Shown here piece after piece: positions 29,936-64,000 of a stretch of DNA of 64,000 nucleotides. Location of the stretch: positions 26,247-90,246 of the forward strand of contig JBAZMK010000002.1 of the NCBI GenBank assembly GCA_041649755.1, written 5' to 3'. This DNA comes from Candidatus Pacearchaeota archaeon (GTDB taxonomy: Archaea > Nanobdellota > Nanobdellia > Pacearchaeales > GW2011-AR1). Below the pieces are notes generated by a model, which was not told the origin of the DNA, searched no databases, and worked only from the letters and a program-made list of their open reading frames with translations. How positions within the stretch are numbered: position 1 is the first letter of the stretch; the number at the start of each line of letters is the position of its first letter. A program made the position numbers and the translations under genes.

Positions 29936-32900
29936 TTACTCTTTCGCCTCGTCGTCAATTTTCTTCTTTTGTTTCTTATCTGCAAGAGACCCCGTTACCT
30001 TAACAAGCAAACCTGGGAGCCCTGTCCCGACAGGAACCGGCTGATTCAAAATTATGTTCTCTATAACCGAAGCAAGTTTATCCTTTTTACCAGTCTTTGT
30101 GGCTTGAACAAAATGCTTAACTGGGGTTTCAAAACTTGCACGGGCAAGAATAGAACTCTTGTCAGAGATTATTCCCATTCTTGTAATTCCTTTTACAACT
30201 CCTGAACAGGTCATAGTATCTGCAACAAGCATAGCGTGCTTCTTGTCAACATTAAGACCCTGAAAAACAATAACCTTTTCAATCTCATTAATAACCGCCT
30301 GACGAGCTGCTTCAATCCCAAACACATCAAATATCTCATGAATATCATTAGTTGTAGTCCTCTGAGAATCAACCCCTTTAAAGCTCAGAACATCTTTCAA
30401 ATTAGACCCTGCAGTCAACACAACAAAATCCTTACCCCTCTTAACAACCAAAACCTGAGATATCTTTTTAACACCAGTCAAGATAACTTCTTTTAATTTC
30501 TCCTTGATTTTATAAATAGCCTTAAAATCCTCCTTAGACATATCTATTGAAATCTGGTCCCCCTTCTTAGCCGCAAATCCCTTGTCCTTTAAAACATCAA
30601 CAACCTTGTCAACAGAAAGATGAGCAGACCTAAGTGAAGAAGGGTTAACACTAATTTTTATTTTCTTTGCACCAAAATCTACCGAAATATTAGAAATGAC
30701 TTCTTTTAACTTAACTTCTCTTATTTTCTCTGCAATCGCCCGAGAGTTACCTTCATTATTATGTTCTTTGTCCATATAAATTTCCATAGTAGGAGTCTTT
30801 GGAAGCTTTCTCGCGTCAAGAATCTCAATTATTCTTGGAAGACCTTGTGTAACCTGCATCTCTGCAACACCTGCTGAGTGGAATACGTTAAGAACCATCT
30901 GAGTGGAAGATTCTCCAAAAGATTGAGCTGCAACAACCCCTATCGCCTCGCCTGGAGCAATCTGTTCTTCCTTATGCTTTGAAGAAACATCAATGCCATC
31001 AATGCCGTACTTAAACTGAACAATACTATTTGATGCATCCCTTACAGTTCCATCATAAGCCACAATCAAATCCTGTAATGCATTAGCAAGTCTTCTGTAA
31101 AGATAACCTGACTTGGGGGTTCTTAAGGCTACATCCATTAAACCATCTCTCCCAGTCATAGAACCGAAGAAAAACTCATCAGGCTTTAGACCCTCCATAA
31201 GAGAACTATAAATGAACCCTCTGGATTTTGGAGACAAATCACCCTTCTTAAAAAAAGAAAGGGTCCTCCCAGTATAACCAAAGTCAATCCTCCTTCCATT
31301 AAGAACCTGCTGACCCACAGAACCTGCTATCTGAGAAATATTCAGAACACTTCCTTTAGCCCCTGAAGCAATCATCTTACTTGCCAAATTGCTCTCTGGA
31401 AGACCTTTCTTAATCGCACTTCCAATCTCTGTTCTTGTCTCGTTCAAAACAGTTAAAATCTTTAATTCTCTCGTCTCCTCAGCACTCTTGCCTGGAAGTA
31501 ATTCAAGACTATTATTATAATAACTCCCTATAATCTCTTGCGTCTTCTTCTCTGCAGAACTTATTATTTCTTGCGTCTTCTTCTTAACCTCTAAAGGAAC
31601 ATCTAAATCTTCCAAAGCCAACGTAAAACCGGTCCTTGATAAAAAAGAAGTCCCCATAGCAAAAATCTTTCTCAATAAATCAACCGCTTCCTCTCTTCCC
31701 ATCTTATTATCCACTTGTTTCAAAACCTCGCCTTTTCCTTTCCTGAACCCGCCAGAACTAACAGACCCGACATCAAGTCCTTTAGGAATTACTTTTAAGA
31801 AGATATTCTTCCCGTCATTATTCTTATTCAAACTTCCGACATTAATATCTGCCCCATATAAAAGCTGGGTTGCATCTTCCTTAGAAACTTCCATATTCTC
31901 AAGAAGATAATTACCACTAACAGCATCATCCACACAACCGAGAAAATTCATACCATTCTTAGGAGAAAATAAATTATTATTTACATTCAACAAAACTTTC
32001 GCTTCAGCCCTTGCTTCTTCAGTCTGGGGGGCGTGAATATTCATCTCATCACCATCAAAGTCAGCTCCATAAGGAAAACAAACAGCGGGATGAATTCTAA
32101 ATGTCCTGCAAGGCAAAACCTTGACAAAATGAGCCATTAAAGAAGCTCTATGAAGAGAAGGATGTCTGTTAAATAAAACAATGTCTCCATCAACTAAGTG
32201 TCTTTCAACAATATAACCAGGTTCTATCTCTTCAACAAGTGCATCTCTAAGGTCATCAGTAATTTTCTTTCTCTTTCCATCATGCCTTATTATATAATTA
32301 GCCCCAGGATATTCCTTAGAAAGAATAATTTTCTTCAACCTTTCCTTATTAATAGAAGTTACTTTTTCCGCAACAGTCAGTATCTTTGCAACCTCAACAG
32401 GAATCCCGACCTCATTTATTTTCATATTGGGGTCTGGAGAAATAACCGTTCTGGCAGAAAAATTAACCCTCTTTCCTGCAAGGTTCTTTCTTATCCTCCC
32501 CTCCTTACCCTTAATTCTCTCTGCAATAGTTTTCAAGGGCTGACCGCTTCTATGTCTCGCAGGAGGAACCTTAGCTATAGAATTATCAAACAAAGTCGTA
32601 ACATGATATTGCAACAAATCCCAAAGGTCTTCAATAATAACTTCTGGCGCACCTGCATTAAGATTCTCCCAAAGACGTTGGTTTGACCGAATTATATCAG
32701 AAAGCTTATGGCTAACATCATCTTCCGACCTCTCTCCTGTTTCAAGAGTTATGGAAGGTCTAACCGTAACGGGAGGAACTAAAAGTAAAGTTAAAACAGC
32801 CCATTCTGGTCTAAGAGTCTTAGCATTAATCCCCAAAATTTTCAAATCTTCATCTGTTACTTTAACAAGCCTCTCACGGATTTCAGAAGGAAAAAGTCTC

Positions 32901-33364
32901 CTCTTCCCACTCCTAAAAGTTGAAGGCTTCTCAATCTTAACTCTTTCCTGAATAATCCCGCAATGAGGGCATTTCTTTCCGTCCTTAGCCTTTTTTATTC
33001 TGGAAGGTAGATCTTTGTTTAAATCCTTCTCGTCTTTTATAAGAATCCTACCACAAGCCTCACAGGTGCATCTAAGAACAATGTCAATTATAGGGAGATA
33101 ATTAATGTGTATAATTGGTCTAGCTAGCTCAATAACCCCTGGATGACCAAGGCACTCTTTTAATCTCCCCCCACAAGTTCTGCATCTCACACCAGGATCA
33201 ACAGCACCAAGCCTCAAATCCATTAAACCCCCATCAACAGGATAACCATCAATATCATAAAGTTCAGGCGTCACAATCTTTGCAACAGCAAGCTTTTTTA
33301 TCTGCTCCGGACTAAGAAGCTGAAAATTCATTGATTTAATTTGTTTTCTTATAGGTCTACTCAT
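29936..33364 (-). CDS. rpoA: DNA-directed RNA polymerase subunit A, apparently fused A'+A'' (1142 aa)
   Basis: The N-terminus carries the A' zinc-binding 'CRTCGGRLKECLGHPG' and 'NADFDGDEMN' is the catalytic Mg site. The C-terminus 'ARASFETPVKHFVQA...PVPVGTGLPGL' is A''-like. No internal stop is present. Confidence 0.85.
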   Translation of the reverse strand: MSRPIRKQIKSMNFQLLSPEQIKKLAVAKIVTPELYDIDGYPVDGGLMDLRLGAVDPGVRCRTCGGRLKECLGHPGVIELARPIIHINYLPIIDIVLRCTCEACGRILIKDEKDLNKDLPSRIKKAKDGKKCPHCGIIQERVKIEKPSTFRSGKRRLFPSEIRERLVKVTDEDLKILGINAKTLRPEWAVLTLLLVPPVTVRPSITLETGERSEDDVSHKLSDIIRSNQRLWENLNAGAPEVIIEDLWDLLQYHVTTLFDNSIAKVPPARHRSGQPLKTIAERIKGKEGRIRKNLAGKRVNFSARTVISPDPNMKINEVGIPVEVAKILTVAEKVTSINKERLKKIILSKEYPGANYIIRHDGKRKKITDDLRDALVEEIEPGYIVERHLVDGDIVLFNRHPSLHRASLMAHFVKVLPCRTFRIHPAVCFPYGADFDGDEMNIHAPQTEEARAEAKVLLNVNNNLFSPKNGMNFLGCVDDAVSGNYLLENMEVSKEDATQLLYGADINVGSLNKNNDGKNIFLKVIPKGLDVGSVSSGGFRKGKGEVLKQVDNKMGREEAVDLLRKIFAMGTSFLSRTGFTLALEDLDVPLEVKKKTQEIISSAEKKTQEIIGSYYNNSLELLPGKSAEETRELKILTVLNETRTEIGSAIKKGLPESNLASKMIASGAKGSVLNISQIAGSVGQQVLNGRRIDFGYTGRTLSFFKKGDLSPKSRGFIYSSLMEGLKPDEFFFGSMTGRDGLMDVALRTPKSGYLYRRLANALQDLIVAYDGTVRDASNSIVQFKYGIDGIDVSSKHKEEQIAPGEAIGVVAAQSFGESSTQMVLNVFHSAGVAEMQVTQGLPRIIEILDARKLPKTPTMEIYMDKEHNNEGNSRAIAEKIREVKLKEVISNISVDFGAKKIKISVNPSSLRSAHLSVDKVVDVLKDKGFAAKKGDQISIDMSKEDFKAIYKIKEKLKEVILTGVKKISQVLVVKRGKDFVVLTAGSNLKDVLSFKGVDSQRTTTNDIHEIFDVFGIEAARQAVINEIEKVIVFQGLNVDKKHAMLVADTMTCSGVVKGITRMGIISDKSSILARASFETPVKHFVQATKTGKKDKLASVIENIILNQPVPVGTGLPGLLVKVTGSLADKKQKKKIDDEAKE

Positions 33365-39938: not shown

Positions 39939-40400
39939 TTATTTGCTCCAAGCGGCTATTCCTATGAATACTAACCAAACAATATTCAATACAGGGATAA
40001 TTTGGAATATTGCCCACCAACCAGGTCTCTTCACAGCTTCAAAAGTTTTCCACATCCATATTACAAAGAAAACCGCAAAAGCTAAACCTAAAATTCCACC
40101 CAAAACTGGAATCCAAAAGCCGATTAGTAAAAGAATTGGCCACCAATGCATCTTCGCTGCCTTTGAAGCAATCAATGCAGGACCTACAATGGGAATCCAC
40201 GCAAGATTAGGACTTTTCTGCTTATTTCTTCGTGCAATAGCCACAAAAGCTAACGACATATAAATCCAAAGAGCCACACCAATTATGACTACAAAAACAA
40301 GCATACCCATCAAAAAAGCTATAAGACCCCCACCAACGGCACCTCCGACAAAAGCCGAAGAATCAAAAGGAATTGCTGCATCAGCTAATAATTTAATCAT
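39939..40400 (-). CDS. Hypothetical multi-pass membrane protein
   Basis: It is 153 aa with 4 hydrophobic segments and Trp-rich loops. No family was recognised. Confidence 0.4.
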   Translation of the reverse strand: MIKLLADAAIPFDSSAFVGGAVGGGLIAFLMGMLVFVVIIGVALWIYMSLAFVAIARRNKQKSPNLAWIPIVGPALIASKAAKMHWWPILLLIGFWIPVLGGILGLAFAVFFVIWMWKTFEAVKRPGWWAIFQIIPVLNIVWLVFIGIAAWSK

Positions 40401-48439: not shown

Positions 48440-48455
48440 CCACAAGGGATTGTGG
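48440..48455 (+). promoter_or_regulatory. NrdR-box-like palindrome 1
   Basis: CCACAAGGGATTGTGG has CACAA/TTGTG arms matching the outer half-sites of the NrdR box consensus (acaCwAtATaTwGtgt). Confidence 0.4.
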
Positions 48456-48467
48456 AAAAAGGAGGTG

Positions 48468-48484
48468 CAAGATACCATATCTTG
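48468..48484 (+). promoter_or_regulatory. Palindrome 2 (possible second NrdR box) overlapping the nrdR leader
   Basis: CAAGATACCATATCTTG has 7-bp arms. It lies about 30 bp from palindrome 1 and ends 8 nt before the nrdR ATG. Confidence 0.3.
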
Positions 48485-48491
48485 TATTAAG

Positions 48492-48935
48492 ATGTTATGC
48501 CCTTATTGCAATAATCCAGATACAAAAGTCACGGATAAGAGGGATTGTGATTCAATCACCCGTAGGAGAAGAGAGTGCCTTAAGTGTGAAAAAAGATTCA
48601 CGACCTATGAAAGAGTAGAACTGGATTTAAATGTTATAAAAAAAGACGGAAGAAGAGAGAAGTTTTCAAGAAGAAAACTCTTTGAAGGCGTAGCAAAAAA
48701 CCTTGAAAAAAGACCTTTCACAAGCGAACAAATTGAGGATATAGTAAGTGAAATGGAAGCCACAATCTATCGAACAGCAAAAGACAAAGATATCAAAAGT
48801 TCAAAAATAGGAGAAATCGTTATGAACAAACTAAAAAAAGTGGACAAAGTCGCATATATAAGATTCGCAGCAGTTTACAGAGATTTTGAAGATGTAAACG
48901 ATTTCAAAGAAGAAATAAAAAAATTAGAGGATTAA
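48492..48935 (+). CDS. nrdR: Transcriptional repressor NrdR (zinc ribbon + ATP-cone)
   Basis: 'MLCPYCNNPDTKVTDKRDCDSITRRRRECLKCEKRFTTYERVEL' closely matches the NrdR N-terminus, and an ATP-cone follows. The listed longer ORF starts at a TTG, so ATG 48492 is preferred. Confidence 0.8.
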   Translation: MLCPYCNNPDTKVTDKRDCDSITRRRRECLKCEKRFTTYERVELDLNVIKKDGRREKFSRRKLFEGVAKNLEKRPFTSEQIEDIVSEMEATIYRTAKDKDIKSSKIGEIVMNKLKKVDKVAYIRFAAVYRDFEDVNDFKEEIKKLED

Positions 48936-48939
48936 TAAT

Positions 48940-51036
48940 ATGGTTAACAAAATAAGAAAAAGAGATGGGAGTATTGTCTTATTTCAAAAAGACAAAATTG
49001 CAAATGCCATCTGGAAAGCAGTGAGAGCAGTCGGAGGAAATGACAGGGAAAGAGCAGAAAAAGTATCTGAAATCGTTATAGAGAAACTTGAAAGACTTCA
49101 TGGGGATTATGGTATACCTGATGTAGAAGAGGTTCAGGACCTTGTAGAAAAAGTCTTAATAGAAGAAGGTCACGCAAAAGTTGCCAAAGCATACATCCTT
49201 TACAGAAAAAGTCACGAAGAATTAAGAAATATAAAAGGACTTTTTGATACGATTGAAGTAATTGAAGATTACATTGGATTGGACGACTGGATGGTTAAAG
49301 AAAATTCAAATATGGGCTTTTCTCTTCAGGGGCTAAACAACTACATCGCTACAAAAATAGTATCCAATTATTGGATGAGAAGAATATATCCTGAAGCGAT
49401 AAGAAAAGTTCATGAAGCAGGAGATCTCCATATCCACGACTTAGGAACTTTGGGAGCTTACTGCGTTGGATGGGACCTAAAAGATTTATTAATGGTGGGA
49501 TTTAGAGGAGTTAAAGGAAAAGTTGAAAGTAAACCTGCAAAACATCTAAGAACTGCACTCGGGCAAGTAGTAAACTTCTTTTACACACTGCAAGGGGAAA
49601 CCGCGGGAGCACAAGCCTTCTCAAATTTTGACACACTTCTCGCCCCCTTCATCAGATATGACAAATTAAATTACAAAGATGTAAAACAAATAATGCAGGA
49701 ATTCGCCTTTAACTTAGCAGTACCTACACGAGTAGGATTTCAAACCCCCTTCACGAATATAACTATGGACCTAGAGGTACCAGAATACATGAAAAACGAG
49801 CCAGTTGTAATTGGAGGAGAACTAAAAAAAGAAACCTATAAAGAATTTGAAGAAGAAATGAAAATGATAAATAGAGCTTTTGCAGAGATTATGCTTGAAG
49901 GAGATGCCTCTGGACAAGTATTTACATTTCCTATCCCAACATATAATATAACAAAAAATTTTAAATGGGACAATCCTGACCACGACCTAATTTGGGAAAT
50001 GACCGCAAAATATGGTATACCTTACTTTTCAAACTTTGTCAACTCAGATATGAAACCAGAAGATTCAAGAAGTATGTGTTGCAGACTTAGACTTGATCAA
50101 AAAGAACTAAAAAAAAGAGGGGGAGGACTCTTCGGAGCAAACCCTCAGACAGGGAGTATAGGGGTTGTAACAATAAATATGCCCCGACTGGGATTTGTCT
50201 CCTCAAATGAAGAAGATTTCTTTACCAGATTAGACAGATTAATGGAACTATCAAAAGAAAGCTTAGAAATAAAAAGAAAAACTATAGAAAAATTCACAGA
50301 AGTTGGACTTTATCCTTACTCAAAATTCTATCTAAGACAAGTATACCAAAGATTCAACGAATACTGGAAAAACCACTTTGCAACAATAGGATTAATAGGA
50401 ATGAATGAGGCAATAATAAATTTTCTTCCTGGAGAAGATATAACAACGTCAAGAGGAAGAGAATTCGCCATCAAAGTTTTAGATTTTATGAGAAATCGCT
50501 TAGAGGGATATCAAAAAGAAACAGGAAACATATATAACCTCGAAGCCACGCCGGGAGAAGGAGTAACCTATCGTTTCGCAAGAATGGACAAGAAAAGATT
50601 CGGAAAGATAATTGTTGCAAATGAAAAATCAGTCACTCAAGGAGCAAAACCCTATTATACAAACTCGTCACAACTGCCTGTAAATTACACAGAAGACATA
50701 TTTGAGGCACTTGATTTACAAGATGAATTACAATGTAAGTATACTGGCGGAACGGTCTTTCACACTTATGTTGGAGAAAAACTAAACAAAGAAGCCGTAA
50801 AAACAATTGTCAAAAAAATTGCAAACACTTACCATCTTCCTTATTTCACAATAACACCAACATTTTCTATCTGTCCTATCCATGGGTATCTCCCTGGAGA
50901 ACACGAATATTGCCCAAAATGCGACTTAGAACAAGCCTCAAACTCTTCAATTGAAGCAAACACCAAAATTGATGAAGGAAAAAAAGTTGAATTAATGTCT
51001 CAAATAAATAAAGGAGGTGTTCATGGGACGGACTAA
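48940..51036 (+). CDS. nrdD: Anaerobic ribonucleoside-triphosphate reductase (class III) large subunit, apparently lacking the glycyl-radical tail
   Basis: It has an N-terminal ATP-cone 'KRDGSIVLFQKDKIANAI', the NrdD core and a C-terminal Cys/His cluster 'CPIHGYLPGEHEYCPKCD'. It is followed by the nrdG activase. The RVxGY tail is in another frame, annotated separately below. Confidence 0.75.
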   Translation: MVNKIRKRDGSIVLFQKDKIANAIWKAVRAVGGNDRERAEKVSEIVIEKLERLHGDYGIPDVEEVQDLVEKVLIEEGHAKVAKAYILYRKSHEELRNIKGLFDTIEVIEDYIGLDDWMVKENSNMGFSLQGLNNYIATKIVSNYWMRRIYPEAIRKVHEAGDLHIHDLGTLGAYCVGWDLKDLLMVGFRGVKGKVESKPAKHLRTALGQVVNFFYTLQGETAGAQAFSNFDTLLAPFIRYDKLNYKDVKQIMQEFAFNLAVPTRVGFQTPFTNITMDLEVPEYMKNEPVVIGGELKKETYKEFEEEMKMINRAFAEIMLEGDASGQVFTFPIPTYNITKNFKWDNPDHDLIWEMTAKYGIPYFSNFVNSDMKPEDSRSMCCRLRLDQKELKKRGGGLFGANPQTGSIGVVTINMPRLGFVSSNEEDFFTRLDRLMELSKESLEIKRKTIEKFTEVGLYPYSKFYLRQVYQRFNEYWKNHFATIGLIGMNEAIINFLPGEDITTSRGREFAIKVLDFMRNRLEGYQKETGNIYNLEATPGEGVTYRFARMDKKRFGKIIVANEKSVTQGAKPYYTNSSQLPVNYTEDIFEALDLQDELQCKYTGGTVFHTYVGEKLNKEAVKTIVKKIANTYHLPYFTITPTFSICPIHGYLPGEHEYCPKCDLEQASNSSIEANTKIDEGKKVELMSQINKGGVHGTD

Positions 51037-51151
51037 ATGTGAGGTTTGGAGCAGAGTTGTAGGATACCTTAGACCTGTTTCCCAGTTTAACGAAGGAAAA
51101 GCAGAAGAATTCAAAGACCGAACGTGCTTTAATTGTTCTTGCGAATGCTAA
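51023..51151 (+). CDS. NrdD glycyl-radical tail peptide (42 aa) encoded in the +1 frame; split gene, frameshift or error
   Basis: It translates to MGRTKCEVWSRVVGYLRPVSQFNEGKAEEFKDRTCFNCSCEC. The canonical class III RNR 'RVxGY...NxGKxEE' glycyl radical signature is present. GGAGGTG lies 3 nt upstream of the ATG. The ORF is absent from the supplied track because it is under 60 aa. Confidence 0.55.
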   Translation: MGRTKCEVWSRVVGYLRPVSQFNEGKAEEFKDRTCFNCSCEC

Positions 51152-51183
51152 ATTTTTGGGAGGAAACTCCCTTTCTTTTTAAA

Positions 51184-51885
51184 ATGAAAATCGCTGGATT
51201 CCAAAAAATAACCCTTATTGACTACCCTTCAAAAGTCTCATGTATAATATTTTTATGGGGCTGTAACTTTCGTTGCGGTTTCTGTTACAACCCTGACCTT
51301 GTGATAAGAGAAAAAGAAGAAGAATTCTCTAAAAAAGAGATATTAAAATTTCTTGAAAAAAGGAAAGACAAGTTAGAAGCAGTTTGTATAACTGGAGGTG
51401 AACCTCTTTTAAGCATAGAAGAAAACTTCCTAAAAGAAATAAAAAAATTAGGGTACCTCATAAAAATAGACACAAATGGAAGTTACCCTGAAAAATTAAA
51501 AGATTTAATCAAAAAGAACCTCGTAGATTATATTGCAATGGATATAAAAGCTAGCAGAGAAAATTACCCAAAAGTCACAGGAATTAAAGTTAATTTAAAC
51601 AAAATTGAAGAGTCTATAAAGATTGTATATGAATTTGGTGAATATGAATTTAGAACAACAGTCGTCCCAAGATTCCACAACGAGAAAGAAATAGAAGAAA
51701 TAGGAAAATGGGTAAATAAAATTTGCAATGGAAAACCAAAAAAACATTTTCTTCAGGGATTTAAAAATAAAGGTAATTTTATAGATGACAAATTTAAAAA
51801 AGAAAAAGAAGTGGAAGAAAAATTTTTAAAAAGACTCAAAAAAATTGATGAAGAATATTTTGAAAATGGAGAGGTAAGGATATGA
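51184..51885 (+). CDS. nrdG: Anaerobic ribonucleotide reductase-activating radical SAM protein
   Basis: The 'CNFRCGFCYNPD' CxxxCxxC cluster with the NrdG-type context is present. The start is set at ATG 51184. Confidence 0.75.
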   Translation: MKIAGFQKITLIDYPSKVSCIIFLWGCNFRCGFCYNPDLVIREKEEEFSKKEILKFLEKRKDKLEAVCITGGEPLLSIEENFLKEIKKLGYLIKIDTNGSYPEKLKDLIKKNLVDYIAMDIKASRENYPKVTGIKVNLNKIEESIKIVYEFGEYEFRTTVVPRFHNEKEIEEIGKWVNKICNGKPKKHFLQGFKNKGNFIDDKFKKEKEVEEKFLKRLKKIDEEYFENGEVRI

Positions 51886-52289
51886 TAACCAAAATAAGGT
51901 CAGAAGAAGTTTATAGACATTTTAAGGGAGAAGAAAAGCTATACAAAGTTCTGGGCGTTGCAAGATGTAAAATAATAAGACAAAGTGATTTGAAGAATCT
52001 TGAACTAATATGCCACGCAAAAGATTGTGAAAATCCCGATGAAGAATTTGATGTTTTTAGGGAAATCTTGGAAGAAATAAATTCAGCTAATGTAAAATTT
52101 TGGATAAATGGAAAAGATAAAATTACTTATGTTGTCTACCAGCAACTATATAGCTCAGAAGATTTTCCAAAAAACACAATTTGGATGAGAAGTATAAGAG
52201 ATTTTACAGGATATAAAAACCTTGAAGAAGGAAGAAGGGTTAAAAGATTTGAACTAGTAAAAGATTTATCTTTAGTTACAAATATTTAA
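51882..52289 (+). CDS. DUF1653 domain protein, translationally coupled to nrdG
   Basis: 'VYRHFKGEEKLYKVLGVAR' and a second 'ITYVVYQQLYSSEDFPKNTIWMRSIRDF' match the DUF1653 consensus (YRHYKG..Y.V...A). Confidence 0.45.
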   Translation: MITKIRSEEVYRHFKGEEKLYKVLGVARCKIIRQSDLKNLELICHAKDCENPDEEFDVFREILEEINSANVKFWINGKDKITYVVYQQLYSSEDFPKNTIWMRSIRDFTGYKNLEEGRRVKRFELVKDLSLVTNI

Positions 52290-61284: not shown

Positions 61285-64000
61285 CTAACCTTCTCTATTT
61301 TTCAAAATCTCACATCCACCTGCTAAATCTTTTCCCCTAAACGAAGATAAAGTCACGCCCTCCCCTAACTCTGGCAACTTCGTAACCTGTGTTGTTATCT
61401 TATAATAAACATTTTTATCAAAAGAATACTCCCACCCCTCATTACCATATCTTATATAAATAGTTCTCGAACTGCTTAAAACAAATTCAAAATTCTGATT
61501 CTCCCTACACTCAAATTCGTCCACGCTCACAGATTTAACATAGCACTCTCCCTCTAAGCATTCCTGACCTTCTGCACAGTGTTCATTTACTAAACACACA
61601 ACACACTTTTTCTCCTCAGAACAATAACCTATCCCACAATCTTCATCTACCTCGCACTCAGTTAAATTCCTCTGAACAACCCCTACATCAGGAGTACTTC
61701 CCTCCAACTTAGACATAACGATCATTCTGTAAACACTTAACTTTAAAGCCAAAGCCTCAGCCTTATTGGCATTCGTTCCAGCACCGCCAGTCTCTCCAGT
61801 AATCCCAATAACCTTATCTAACTCATTAAAAATCTTTGTAATATTACCCTCTGAACTGCCTTTTCTTAGAACATCCTCATCTAAATTTTTTATATCCGTT
61901 CGCGCTTTTGACAAAATACTCTCTACTTCTTCTTGAGTAGCCAATTCTCCTTCCAATAGTTCGCTATTCTCTTCAATGAGGGATATAGAAGTACCTTCCA
62001 CAGACTCTATATCCTCTAAACTATCTTCTACACTACTTATATCAAGCCAACACCTTGTATTAACTTCCCCACAATAACCGACATCTTTCCACCTAGTTGA
62101 GTCTACACTAACTCCTGGATTCACCGAAGCACAAACTCTTACAATCCCCTTCAAGGCAATCTCCGAATCAACTGTATCCTCAACTCCTGACTGCAAGTTA
62201 AGATTAGCCATAGATAAAACAGAAGGACTGCCAGAAATACACTCTTTCTCTGTCGTTATCCCCTCTTTTTCAGCCTGTTCCTCAACATACTTATCTGCAA
62301 GGTAATTAATCCCAAGGTCTGTACTAACCTGACCAAACCCGCACCACTCCTCCGCGTCAATCACAACACAAAGCTCTTTATAGCCGGAAGGGGCTGTAAA
62401 GTCAATAGACTCATCGGCAGAATTACCCAAAGCAACAAACCCAGTCTTAACATTAATTATCGGCGAAGAAGCATAATAACTGCTCGCAGGGGGATTCTTC
62501 AAATAAACCCTGTACTGAACCCCCTTATCTTTCCCTGCATAAATATGATAGTAAACCTTATACTGAGAAGTTGACGGAACCGTCGCCTCGCTAAATAACA
62601 CTTCAGAAAACTGAGCATAAAATTGTGATGGACTCTCTGGCTCAAGCAGACTCTCTATTCCCTCAGCAGAAGAAGGGAAGCTCGTACCAATAAATGCCTT
62701 GCAAACTTCACTTCCAGCCTCATCAATACTTCTTATCTGAAACGCCTTAAAAGCATTAGGAGCATAAGTATTTTGAAAATAATCTACACTCTTCTGAAGA
62801 TTATCCCACGCATTCTGAACGAGGAGATACTCTCCGCCACCCCTAACTCCTGACGAACCCCCATAAAGATTCGCAATTAACTTAGGAACTAAAATATCCA
62901 TAACTGGAGAAAACTGCCTCCAAAAGAACTCACACATATAAATCGCAGTTATTTCATCACATATCCCCACATGCTCGCCAGTCTCAAGACTCCACTGAAG
63001 ACAATCCCTTTCAGACTCAAGTATAGAAACGAAAGCATCAATACCCGCCACAACACCACTTACACAAATAGGAACAATAACCCCCTCTTGAAAATTGGGA
63101 AGACACAAAATCAAACTTCCGATAATCCCTGTCTGAATAACATCACTCACAGGCATTTTACCTCCTAAATCACATCTGGAAGCAGGGCAGATAACAGGGT
63201 CACATACATTAAACAAAATCTTACAATCCTGAGGACTCATAAAATCCTGACATTCAAAGCCCGTAACAGCACTCATTGGACTCCCCACATCAATCTTTTG
63301 ATTAAGAATCGTAACAACTTTTTGGTCTTTCTGTGCAGAGGCCTGCCTTATCGCCTCCCGAGCATTATTATATAAATTCTTAACTTCAGTAGAAGTCAAG
63401 GAAGGACAAGGGATAAATTTATCTACACTTCCTGCACTATTAATGTCAAAAGTCTGACACAAATCGTCACTCAAACCACTCTCCATCTTCCTATTAGACC
63501 CAATATTGCAAATCTTAAAATAACTAACATCTCCCGAAGCAGTATATCCTTGCACAGAAGTATCTAAAAAAGTCCCTCCAGAATTCGGAACCATAACATA
63601 CCAGCCGTTTTTCAAATCAAAAGGAACAATCCCAGGCAGACCTTTCACATTGCCAGATTCATAATAACTTATCTTTGCAGTCCCCTCAGGCCAGGAATTA
63701 GAACAACTCCCAGAACCTTCCTGCGAAAAAACATACTTTTCAAAAGTCTTTCTTTCAGTGTCAGTCTTATCAACCCAACCACTCCCCTCTCTTAAATAAA
63801 TCTTCTCTGCATACATATTGCTCCCTGCTAAATCCTCTTTCAACTTCAAAAGATACATCCTTCCATCAAGATTCAAAAATTGAATTTTATCACCCCTATT
63901 CAACCCACTAACACTTCCTGCTAACTGAGAATTAGCAATATCCTTTCCCCAACGCAAAGTCCTCACTTCCTTGCTCGTAACTGACTGAACGCTCGGGCTA
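61285..64000 (-). CDS. Large Cys-rich putative secreted/surface protein (N-terminus beyond window)
   Basis: More than 900 aa, with the frame open to the window edge. It has many Cys pairs and C-terminal CxxC/Cx2-5C clusters ('CEVDEDCGIGYCSEEKKCVVCLVNEHCAEGQECLEGECY'). It is low in Lys and rich in G/S/T/D, with higher GC than the flanks. No recognisable enzyme motif was found. Confidence 0.6.
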   Translation of the reverse strand, partial: SPSVQSVTSKEVRTLRWGKDIANSQLAGSVSGLNRGDKIQFLNLDGRMYLLKLKEDLAGSNMYAEKIYLREGSGWVDKTDTERKTFEKYVFSQEGSGSCSNSWPEGTAKISYYESGNVKGLPGIVPFDLKNGWYVMVPNSGGTFLDTSVQGYTASGDVSYFKICNIGSNRKMESGLSDDLCQTFDINSAGSVDKFIPCPSLTSTEVKNLYNNAREAIRQASAQKDQKVVTILNQKIDVGSPMSAVTGFECQDFMSPQDCKILFNVCDPVICPASRCDLGGKMPVSDVIQTGIIGSLILCLPNFQEGVIVPICVSGVVAGIDAFVSILESERDCLQWSLETGEHVGICDEITAIYMCEFFWRQFSPVMDILVPKLIANLYGGSSGVRGGGEYLLVQNAWDNLQKSVDYFQNTYAPNAFKAFQIRSIDEAGSEVCKAFIGTSFPSSAEGIESLLEPESPSQFYAQFSEVLFSEATVPSTSQYKVYYHIYAGKDKGVQYRVYLKNPPASSYYASSPIINVKTGFVALGNSADESIDFTAPSGYKELCVVIDAEEWCGFGQVSTDLGINYLADKYVEEQAEKEGITTEKECISGSPSVLSMANLNLQSGVEDTVDSEIALKGIVRVCASVNPGVSVDSTRWKDVGYCGEVNTRCWLDISSVEDSLEDIESVEGTSISLIEENSELLEGELATQEEVESILSKARTDIKNLDEDVLRKGSSEGNITKIFNELDKVIGITGETGGAGTNANKAEALALKLSVYRMIVMSKLEGSTPDVGVVQRNLTECEVDEDCGIGYCSEEKKCVVCLVNEHCAEGQECLEGECYVKSVSVDEFECRENQNFEFVLSSSRTIYIRYGNEGWEYSFDKNVYYKITTQVTKLPELGEGVTLSSFRGKDLAGGCEILKNREG

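Follow-up and report, generated by a model that had tools for sequence, protein, structure and literature searches.

Evidence for a class III ribonucleotide reductase encoded in two genes, with the glycyl-radical loop on a separate 42-residue peptide

We analyzed nrdD, the gene for the class III (anaerobic) ribonucleotide reductase (RNR), in a 64,000-nucleotide stretch of the genome of a Candidatus Pacearchaeota archaeon (contig JBAZMK010000002.1 of assembly GCA_041649755.1, positions 26,247 to 90,246), which we refer to as the window. The nrdD open reading frame (ORF) encodes a core protein that ends without the glycyl-radical loop of this enzyme class, and that loop is encoded by a 42-codon ORF (the mini-ORF) that overlaps the 3' end of nrdD by 14 nt. 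In our assessment the class III RNR of this organism is very probably specified by two genes, one for a Gly-less core and one for a separately translated, translationally coupled glycyl-radical mini-subunit. An initial sequence-only reading had described the radical tail as a separate ORF in another frame, preceded by a Shine-Dalgarno (SD) element of its own, and this description held in every part: the nrdD ORF at 48940..51036, the ORF in the +1 frame, the GGAGGTG element, its 3-nt spacer and the overlap are all present. The exact core and the exact 42-aa product (P0121, 100% identical) are also found as two separate coding sequences in GenBank.

The core and the mini-protein divide NrdD between them

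Membership of the core in the NrdD family was tested with Pfam PF13597, TIGR02487 and PRK08270, and all three models recognize it. The core ORF matches positions 1-530 of the 562 in the Pfam NRDD profile (PF13597, E 2e-182) and scores 1045 bits against an NCBIfam PRK08270 cut-off of 548. Its product is composed of an ATP-cone, a 10-stranded barrel and a Zn ribbon, followed by an acidic tail, and nowhere in its 698 aa is there a glycyl-radical loop of the form R-V-x-G-Y. Core Cys381 aligns with the loop Cys of Prevotella copri NrdD (T-M-G-C-R) and Met379 is kept; we take Cys381 to be the thiyl-radical Cys and Met379 to be the signature of the formate type. Residues M379, C380, C381 and R382 are invariant in our alignments A2 and A3, as are C645, P646, H648, G649, C658, P659 and C661 of the Zn ribbon, which has the 3 Cys + His form, CPIHG-x9-CPKC. 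The core alignment covers residues 109-609 of Thermotoga maritima NrdD (4COI), and with P. copri NrdD (8P23) it ends at the last Zn-ribbon Cys, CPKC(G) residue 704. The radical Gly of the P. copri enzyme is Gly711 (PMC11226230), a few residues past the point at which our core alignment ends.

The missing segment is found in the product of the mini-ORF, MGRTKCEVWSRVVGYLRPVSQFNEGKAEEFKDRTCFNCSCEC. This peptide matches positions 531-561 of the same 562-position NRDD profile (E 5e-10) and aligns with residues 609-639 of T. maritima NrdD, which bears out its earlier assignment as a class III RNR radical tail. The profile is thus split 1-530/531-561 and the T. maritima chain 109-609/609-639 between the two ORFs, an exact domain complementarity. 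We found 35 free-standing homologues of the mini-protein, and residues C6, E7, V8, S10, R11, G14, Y15, L16, R17, P18, N23, G25 and R33 are invariant in 34 mini-proteins. In the clade to which the window's locus belongs (the window's clade), the ratio of nonsynonymous to synonymous differences per site (pN/pS) of the mini-ORF is 0.19 over 30 codons, with pS saturated at 0.84. As judged from these substitutions, the mini-ORF is under strong purifying selection.

The mini-protein has a Cys-rich C-terminus, CFNCSCEC encoded at 51125..51148, and CDCSCGCEC and similar endings occur in Elusimicrobia (L074, L075, L080). Cys is present within the last 12 residues in 34 of 148 family representatives. 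These tails recall the redox-shuttle C-terminal tails of class I/II RNRs, or a metal site. In P0157, P0158 and P0179 the Gly-radical block occurs twice in tandem, e.g. ...EVYSRVVGYLSPVSHWNEGKKEEWEVYSRVVGYLSPVSHWNEGKKEEW..., and such tandem blocks may be either true duplications or assembly artefacts.

We examined the split in two sets of loci. Among the 120 closest core homologues (74-91% identity), which come from NCBI, JGI, ENA and Logan assemblies, not one core contains R-x-x-G-Y (0/120). In addition, we dissected the junction at each of 80 species-representative loci with 60-82% identity, and found that 55 are split, 24 are contiguous and 1 is truncated.

Initiation signals and reading frames at the junction

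Junctions were scored at 51 loci and in the window, 52 in all. The mini-ORF begins with ATG in 50 of these 52, and it is preceded by an SD of at least 4 nt in 49 and of at least 5 nt in 38. Across the window's clade the sequence gaGgtGaT-N4-ATGG is conserved. The same signals are visible in the core proteins: in about 90 of the 120 closest homologues the core tail ends in L-N-x-G-G-D-x-N-G, which is the translation of GGAGGTGA-N4-AATGG, i.e. of the SD together with the +1-frame ATG, and a few homologue tails continue with MRSLEQSCRIP, the frame-shifted reading of EVWSRVVGY. When the junctions are placed in register, the SD and ATG are fixed and the position of the core stop floats, lying before the SD, within it (tagGAGG, taaGGAGG), on the start codon (ATGA, TAATG, TAAATG) or 5-70 nt beyond. 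A fixed SD and ATG combined with a floating core stop indicate that the two ORFs are translationally coupled neighbours. In 38 of the 52 junctions the two ORFs are separated by -137 to +25 nt, ATGA, TAATG and TAAATG overlaps included, and these junctions qualify as coupled pairs. In the window the SD and ATG lie inside the last core codons, so that ribosomes finishing the core terminate 11 nt past the start of the mini-ORF.

Full SD elements are rare before the genes of this genome (4 of 62 long ORFs, compared with a background of 2.8%), which argues that GGAGGTG at the mini-ORF is a specific internal-initiation signal. The only other full GGAGGTGAT in the window is on the minus strand, before a 153-aa ORF starting at 40400. 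In 10 of 11 loci the RNA at the junction shows no structure (z about 0 to +2), and we detected no conserved fold in these 11 loci that could occlude the SD or stimulate a frameshift. We rejected the idea that the conserved TAAA block 5' of the SD is a promoter element, because the block lies too near the ATG for an archaeal TATA box; a sigma-70 scan gave no excess of matches.

Some of these features would also be expected of a programmed +1 frameshift resembling that of prfB, in which the internal SD stimulates the shift and the core, an acidic linker and the Gly loop are fused in one polypeptide. The offset is +1 throughout the window's clade, where a fusable region of 17-86 nt is always present and a strong SD stands just 5' of the frame change. 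The frame-0 tail of the core is moreover open far beyond chance (P 0.0005-0.044 per locus, extending to 385 codons in L003), as a linker would be, and the two other frames of the tail region are full of stops. However, the frame relation does not hold in sister lineages: the mini-ORF is offset by +1 in 22 of the 51 loci, by +2 in 18 and by 0 behind a stop in 11, and a neighbour-joining tree of the core proteins, indicative only, shows the three offsets intermixed among sister taxa. At 20 of the 52 junctions a stop in the mini-ORF frame lies 3' of the core stop, so that no single frameshift can join the frames, and in Halanaerobiales nrdG intervenes between the two ORFs. Offsets of 0, +1 and +2 together with an intervening nrdG would require three different recoding mechanisms. 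Of the two features that the sequence-only reading had proposed to compare among orthologues, the split is thus conserved and the frame offset is not.

A shift site is likewise missing. The fusable region of the window, 51008..51033, holds neither a slippery motif, which the same reading had suggested looking for, nor a homopolymer longer than 3 nt; the latter result also led us to reject transcriptional slippage. The ATG is conserved throughout but the nucleotides that separate it from the SD are not, the 0-frame stop may precede the ATG or follow it by as much as 70 nt, and the RNA offers no conserved or stable structure as a stimulator. The prfB-type system likewise has an SD-like element inside the ORF shortly before the frame change and the 0-frame stop, but here there is no conserved shift codon or frame relation and instead a conserved ATG at optimal SD spacing. 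A programmed +1 frameshift, which the sequence-only reading had listed as an option, is therefore very unlikely.

One glycyl-radical motif per locus

GrcA/YfiD suggests another account, in which the mini-protein would be a facultative back-up that rescues full-length NrdD after cleavage by oxygen. The mini-protein is indeed a small free-standing protein with a glycyl-radical loop, as GrcA is for pyruvate formate-lyase (PFL), and to this extent the earlier comparison with a GrcA-like trans-acting peptide was apt. It fails on type and on role. NRDD (PF13597) is the sole Pfam match of the mini-protein and the PFL-type Gly_radical family (PF01228) is not matched, and its partner core lacks a Gly loop. 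Furthermore, there is exactly one Gly-radical motif per locus at the 55 split as well as the 24 contiguous loci: split loci always have one mini-ORF, and at the 24 contiguous loci no additional mini-ORF accompanies nrdD. The whole 64-kb window contains a single Gly-radical motif and no second nrdD. With one motif per locus the peptide is, on this comparative evidence, an obligate subunit and not a back-up copy, and we consider a GrcA-style spare part highly improbable.

Phylogenetic distribution of the split

Split nrdD was found in bins assigned to Pacearchaeota, Woesearchaeota, Nanoarchaeota, Aenigmatarchaeota, Iainarchaeota and Micrarchaeota, and also in Elusimicrobia, in one Parcubacteria bin and in Halanaerobiales. 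In Bacteroidales, Syntrophomonas and Paceibacterota of the candidate phyla radiation nrdD is contiguous (119/119). In two isolates, Halanaerobium kushneri ATCC 700103 and Orenia metallireducens MSL40, the mini-ORF follows nrdG, which itself follows the core gene. The radical motif of Orenia and some others is RVVGF, not RVVGY. A profile of the mini-proteins searched against 1.84 billion cluster representatives gave 5057 matches, 2811 of them at E <= 1e-10, and among the best 150 of the 5057 matches 149 are 42-106 aa long. We examined 148 of these short matches, of which 139 begin with Met and 3 have any upstream CxxC; the Met starts and the scarcity of upstream CxxC indicate that these are not contig-edge fragments of contiguous NrdDs.

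This distribution leaves little room for a sequencing or assembly indel, or pseudogene decay, as the event that broke an ordinary contiguous nrdD. The window does come from a metagenome-assembled genome (MAG), and a single-base indel would yield a +1 offset. Nevertheless, the same architecture is present in all 120 closest homologues irrespective of the four assembly sources, and the 55 split species loci include isolate genomes. Conservation of the SD and ATG and the low pN/pS of the mini-ORF are equally at odds with decay, and the two ORFs of a 91%-identical relative (P0003, P0123) come from JGI contigs with an identical length of 8141 nt, probably one and the same contig. An A7 run that had been placed at 50973..50979 actually occupies 50979..50985; it remains upstream of the +1-frame TAA (51005-07) that precedes the mini-ORF, and the earlier argument that an indel in this run cannot fuse the frames still holds. 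We regard the indel option of the sequence-only reading as refuted for practical purposes.

Joining of the two chains after translation, by split-intein trans-splicing or another ligation, has a negligible chance of being correct. In its favour, this NrdD family often contains inteins (homologues of 1022-1213 aa, LAGLIDADG/intein domains). However, core tails can be as short as 4-20 aa and are of low complexity, mini-proteins have only 3-10 residues before the conserved block, Pfam finds no intein domain on either window ORF, and intein halves need more room than such short tails offer. The homologues of 1022-1213 aa occur in both split and contiguous clades (P0006, P0029, P0030, P0062, P0114, P0345-P0352, P0360), and the LAGLIDADG or intein Pfam domains in some of them suggest that inteins are inserted in the core.

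Observations that weigh against a two-gene enzyme

Several observations count against the two-gene interpretation, and one of these is the core tail. The sequence-only reading had nrdD stop right after its Cys/His cluster, which proved incorrect as C645..C661 is followed by 37 further codons that specify an acidic tail (pI 4.8). In the 120 closest homologues the tail after the Zn ribbon is likewise acidic, hypervariable and 14-385 aa long. The tail of the window's core is predicted to be disordered (predicted local distance difference test score, pLDDT, < 50 at residues 664-702). Selection keeps the acidic tail free of stops, and a simple two-subunit model leaves this unexplained beyond translational coupling. 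Coupling needs ribosomes at the mini-ORF start, and this would select against premature stops in the tail; such selection does not account for the fact that the tail has not been deleted outright. With the constant +1 offset and the ever-present fusable region of the window's clade, a minor fused product is conceivable in that clade. Moreover, most of the split loci are from MAGs, with Halanaerobiales as the only cultured isolates. Finally, an AlphaFold 2 model of the concatenated chains, computed with a correctly registered multiple sequence alignment (A3), places Gly14 at the tip of a beta-hairpin, and its confidence is low across the peptide region; with a peptide pLDDT of only ~55 (the concatenated chains gave 35 from single sequence) the model lends weak support.

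Proposed mechanism

We propose that coupled translation would give core and peptide in a ratio of roughly 1:1. The 4.9-kDa peptide would dock in the barrel at the site that the C-terminal Gly loop occupies in single-chain NrdD, where it would supply a beta-hairpin with Gly14 at its tip plus the segment that follows. The product of the adjacent nrdG, which is of the NrdG2 type, is presumed from its sequence to install the glycyl radical on the mini-protein; it would abstract a hydrogen from Gly14, and the radical would then go to Cys381 of the finger loop, with catalysis proceeding as in formate-type NrdD. PFL activase accepts both short peptides and GrcA, which makes activation of a free 42-mer plausible. 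The Gly loop of P. copri NrdD lies buried within the barrel, and the C-terminal tail of this protein runs over its surface (PMC11226230).

Features on either side of the break could help to hold the two chains together. At five Elusimicrobia loci (L068, L070, L074, L075, L080) the last segment of the core is a heptad-like helix, ERMQELEHQIKLLEEQLYSK, and a second such helix, MTAQERQAVENKISELKKEM, opens the mini-protein, the gap between the core and the mini-ORF being 93-155 nt. The two helices could act as a non-covalent zipper between the chains. At L020 the acidic stretch is located on the N-terminus of the mini-protein rather than on the core. An acidic N-terminus at L020 and helices on both sides of the break in Elusimicrobia suggest that the tail could help in recruiting the peptide or retaining it. 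The data do not support an electrostatic tether between acidic tail and peptide, as the latter is near neutral (pI 7.6).

It is also possible, though we lean against it, that the mini-protein is an exchangeable radical cartridge, with a free peptide activated by NrdG plugging into the Gly-less core. Once oxygen had cleaved such a peptide at its glycyl radical, activity would return through loss of the fragments and insertion of a new peptide, and the acidic core tail or the paired Elusimicrobia helices might help to recruit or retain the peptide. If this were true, small-genome anaerobes would replace 42 residues and not a protein of ~700 residues, class III RNR would be a two-component system of catalytic part and radical carrier like class I, and the mini-protein would offer a minimal model glycyl-radical substrate.

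Gene neighbourhood and other features of the window

On the plus strand nrdR, nrdD, the mini-ORF and nrdG follow one another in an operon-like arrangement (Table 1). The true start of nrdR is likely the ATG at 48492 (MLCPYCNN...). This NrdR is of the bacterial type, with a Zn ribbon and an ATP-cone, and stands directly 5' of nrdD on an otherwise archaeal contig; the window encodes an RpoB with Rpb2 domains 4 and 5 as well as ABCE1/RLI, which mark it as archaeal. The hairpin between the mini-ORF and nrdG could be a partial terminator or attenuator that lowers expression of the activase relative to the reductase. Terminator-like matches of this kind are no commoner than in shuffled sequence.

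Table 1. Features of the nrd locus in the window (positions are those of the window) and of mini-ORFs located after nrdG in Halanaerobiales (positions are those of the named loci)
Feature	Position	Strand	Description	Evidence
nrdR	48450..48935	+	ATP-cone + Zn-ribbon repressor, directly 5' of nrdD	Pfam Zn_ribbon_NrdR 5e-15, ATP-cone 9e-20
nrdD core	48940..51036	+	698 aa, stop TAA 51034-36	Pfam NRDD, PRK08270
ATP-cone domain of core (aa 4-94)	48949..49221	+		Pfam PF03477, E 8e-23
Finger loop S-M-C-C-R-L (aa 378-383)	50071..50088	+		phmmer alignment to 8P23
Zn ribbon CPIHG-x9-CPKC (aa 645-661)	50872..50922	+	Last conserved element of core	Aligned to 8P23 Zn site
Acidic hypervariable C-terminal tail of core, 37 aa	50923..51033	+	Translated up to/across mini-ORF start	
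Shine-Dalgarno GGAGGTG	51013..51019	+	Within core ORF, codons G-G-V; 3 nt 5' of mini-ORF ATG	
Glycyl-radical mini-protein gene	51023..51151	+	42 aa, 4.9 kDa; +1 frame; ATG 51023, TAA 51149-51	
Gly14 codon in R-V-V-G-Y	51062..51064	+	Predicted radical site	Aligns with T. maritima RIVGY loop
Hairpin GGGAG-GAAA-CTCCC + T-run	51158..51180	+	Between mini-ORF stop and nrdG start	Terminator-like match
nrdG	51184..51885	+	Activase, radical-SAM, NrdG2 type	TIGR02495 E 2e-60; Pfam Radical_SAM E 8e-22
DUF1653-containing ORF	51882..52289		Starts at nrdG stop, overlapping ATGA	
Halanaerobiales mini-ORFs after nrdG	L045 5749..5904; L067 5837..5968		Also in L042, L056	

Elsewhere in the window, a single 1141-aa ORF on the minus strand (29936..33364) carries RNA polymerase Rpb1 domains 1-5, and the largest subunit thus appears unsplit; in most archaea this subunit is split into A' and A''. 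An 892-aa ORF on the minus strand (61285..63966) has no Pfam match at E <= 1e-5.

Significance and relation to known systems

To our knowledge, glycyl-radical enzymes are taught as single chains in which the C-terminal domain bears the radical, with GrcA, the spare part of PFL, as the sole known exception. A class III RNR with an always-separate radical loop of ~40 residues would be a second and obligate example, in another branch of the superfamily. The arrangement is widespread, occurring in DPANN archaea, Elusimicrobia and Halanaerobiales with thousands of matches to the mini-protein profile. We found no description of a split NrdD in the full-text literature searched, the subscription-only literature being outside its scope, and a prior mention cannot be fully excluded. 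The 42-aa ORFs are at present labelled anaerobic ribonucleoside-triphosphate reductase or are uncalled, the cores look truncated or inactive, and metabolic reconstructions of DPANN archaea could wrongly score the synthesis of deoxynucleoside triphosphates as broken. As a naturally occurring minimal substrate, the mini-protein also lends itself to studies of loop entry into the barrel and of the way in which activases reach and activate the glycine, and it bears on the repair of oxygen damage and on the evolution of radical-carrying RNR subunits. Cultured Halanaerobium and Orenia make the arrangement directly testable.

The closest relatives are the canonical single-chain NrdD/NrdG systems of T4, E. 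coli, T. maritima (4COI) and P. copri (8P23), which share with the system described here the fold family, the ATP-cone, the finger-loop Met-x-Cys, the Zn ribbon, the R-V-x-G-Y loop and an adjacent radical-SAM activase. The difference is that here the chain is interrupted after the last Zn-ribbon Cys and before the Gly loop, that the radical-bearing part is a separate gene product of 39-100 aa, and that cores of the window's clade have an extra acidic, disordered tail.

GrcA/YfiD is likewise a small free-standing protein with a glycyl-radical loop, presumably activated by the cognate activase and inserted in a barrel without a functional loop. However, GrcA is PFL-type, is ~127 aa long and, as a facultative spare, serves an enzyme that already has a loop, whereas the peptide described here has ~42 aa, is NrdD-type and carries the only Gly loop available. 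A 2026 review describes spare-part proteins as known for formate lyases only.

Among other RNRs, the split class II enzyme NrdJa/NrdJb also has its catalytic chain in two genes with the C-terminal functional module on the second chain (PMC9669993). It belongs to the B12-dependent class and has a different break point, and NrdJb, a folded domain of IscU-like plus Zn-finger type, bears reducing cysteines and not the radical. Class I RNR keeps its radical on a smaller subunit, beta, from which the radical passes to the catalytic alpha subunit. The analogy is conceptual only: class I beta is an unrelated ferritin-like metalloprotein that relies on long-range radical transfer, and the 5-kDa peptide described here would insert directly beside the catalytic Cys.

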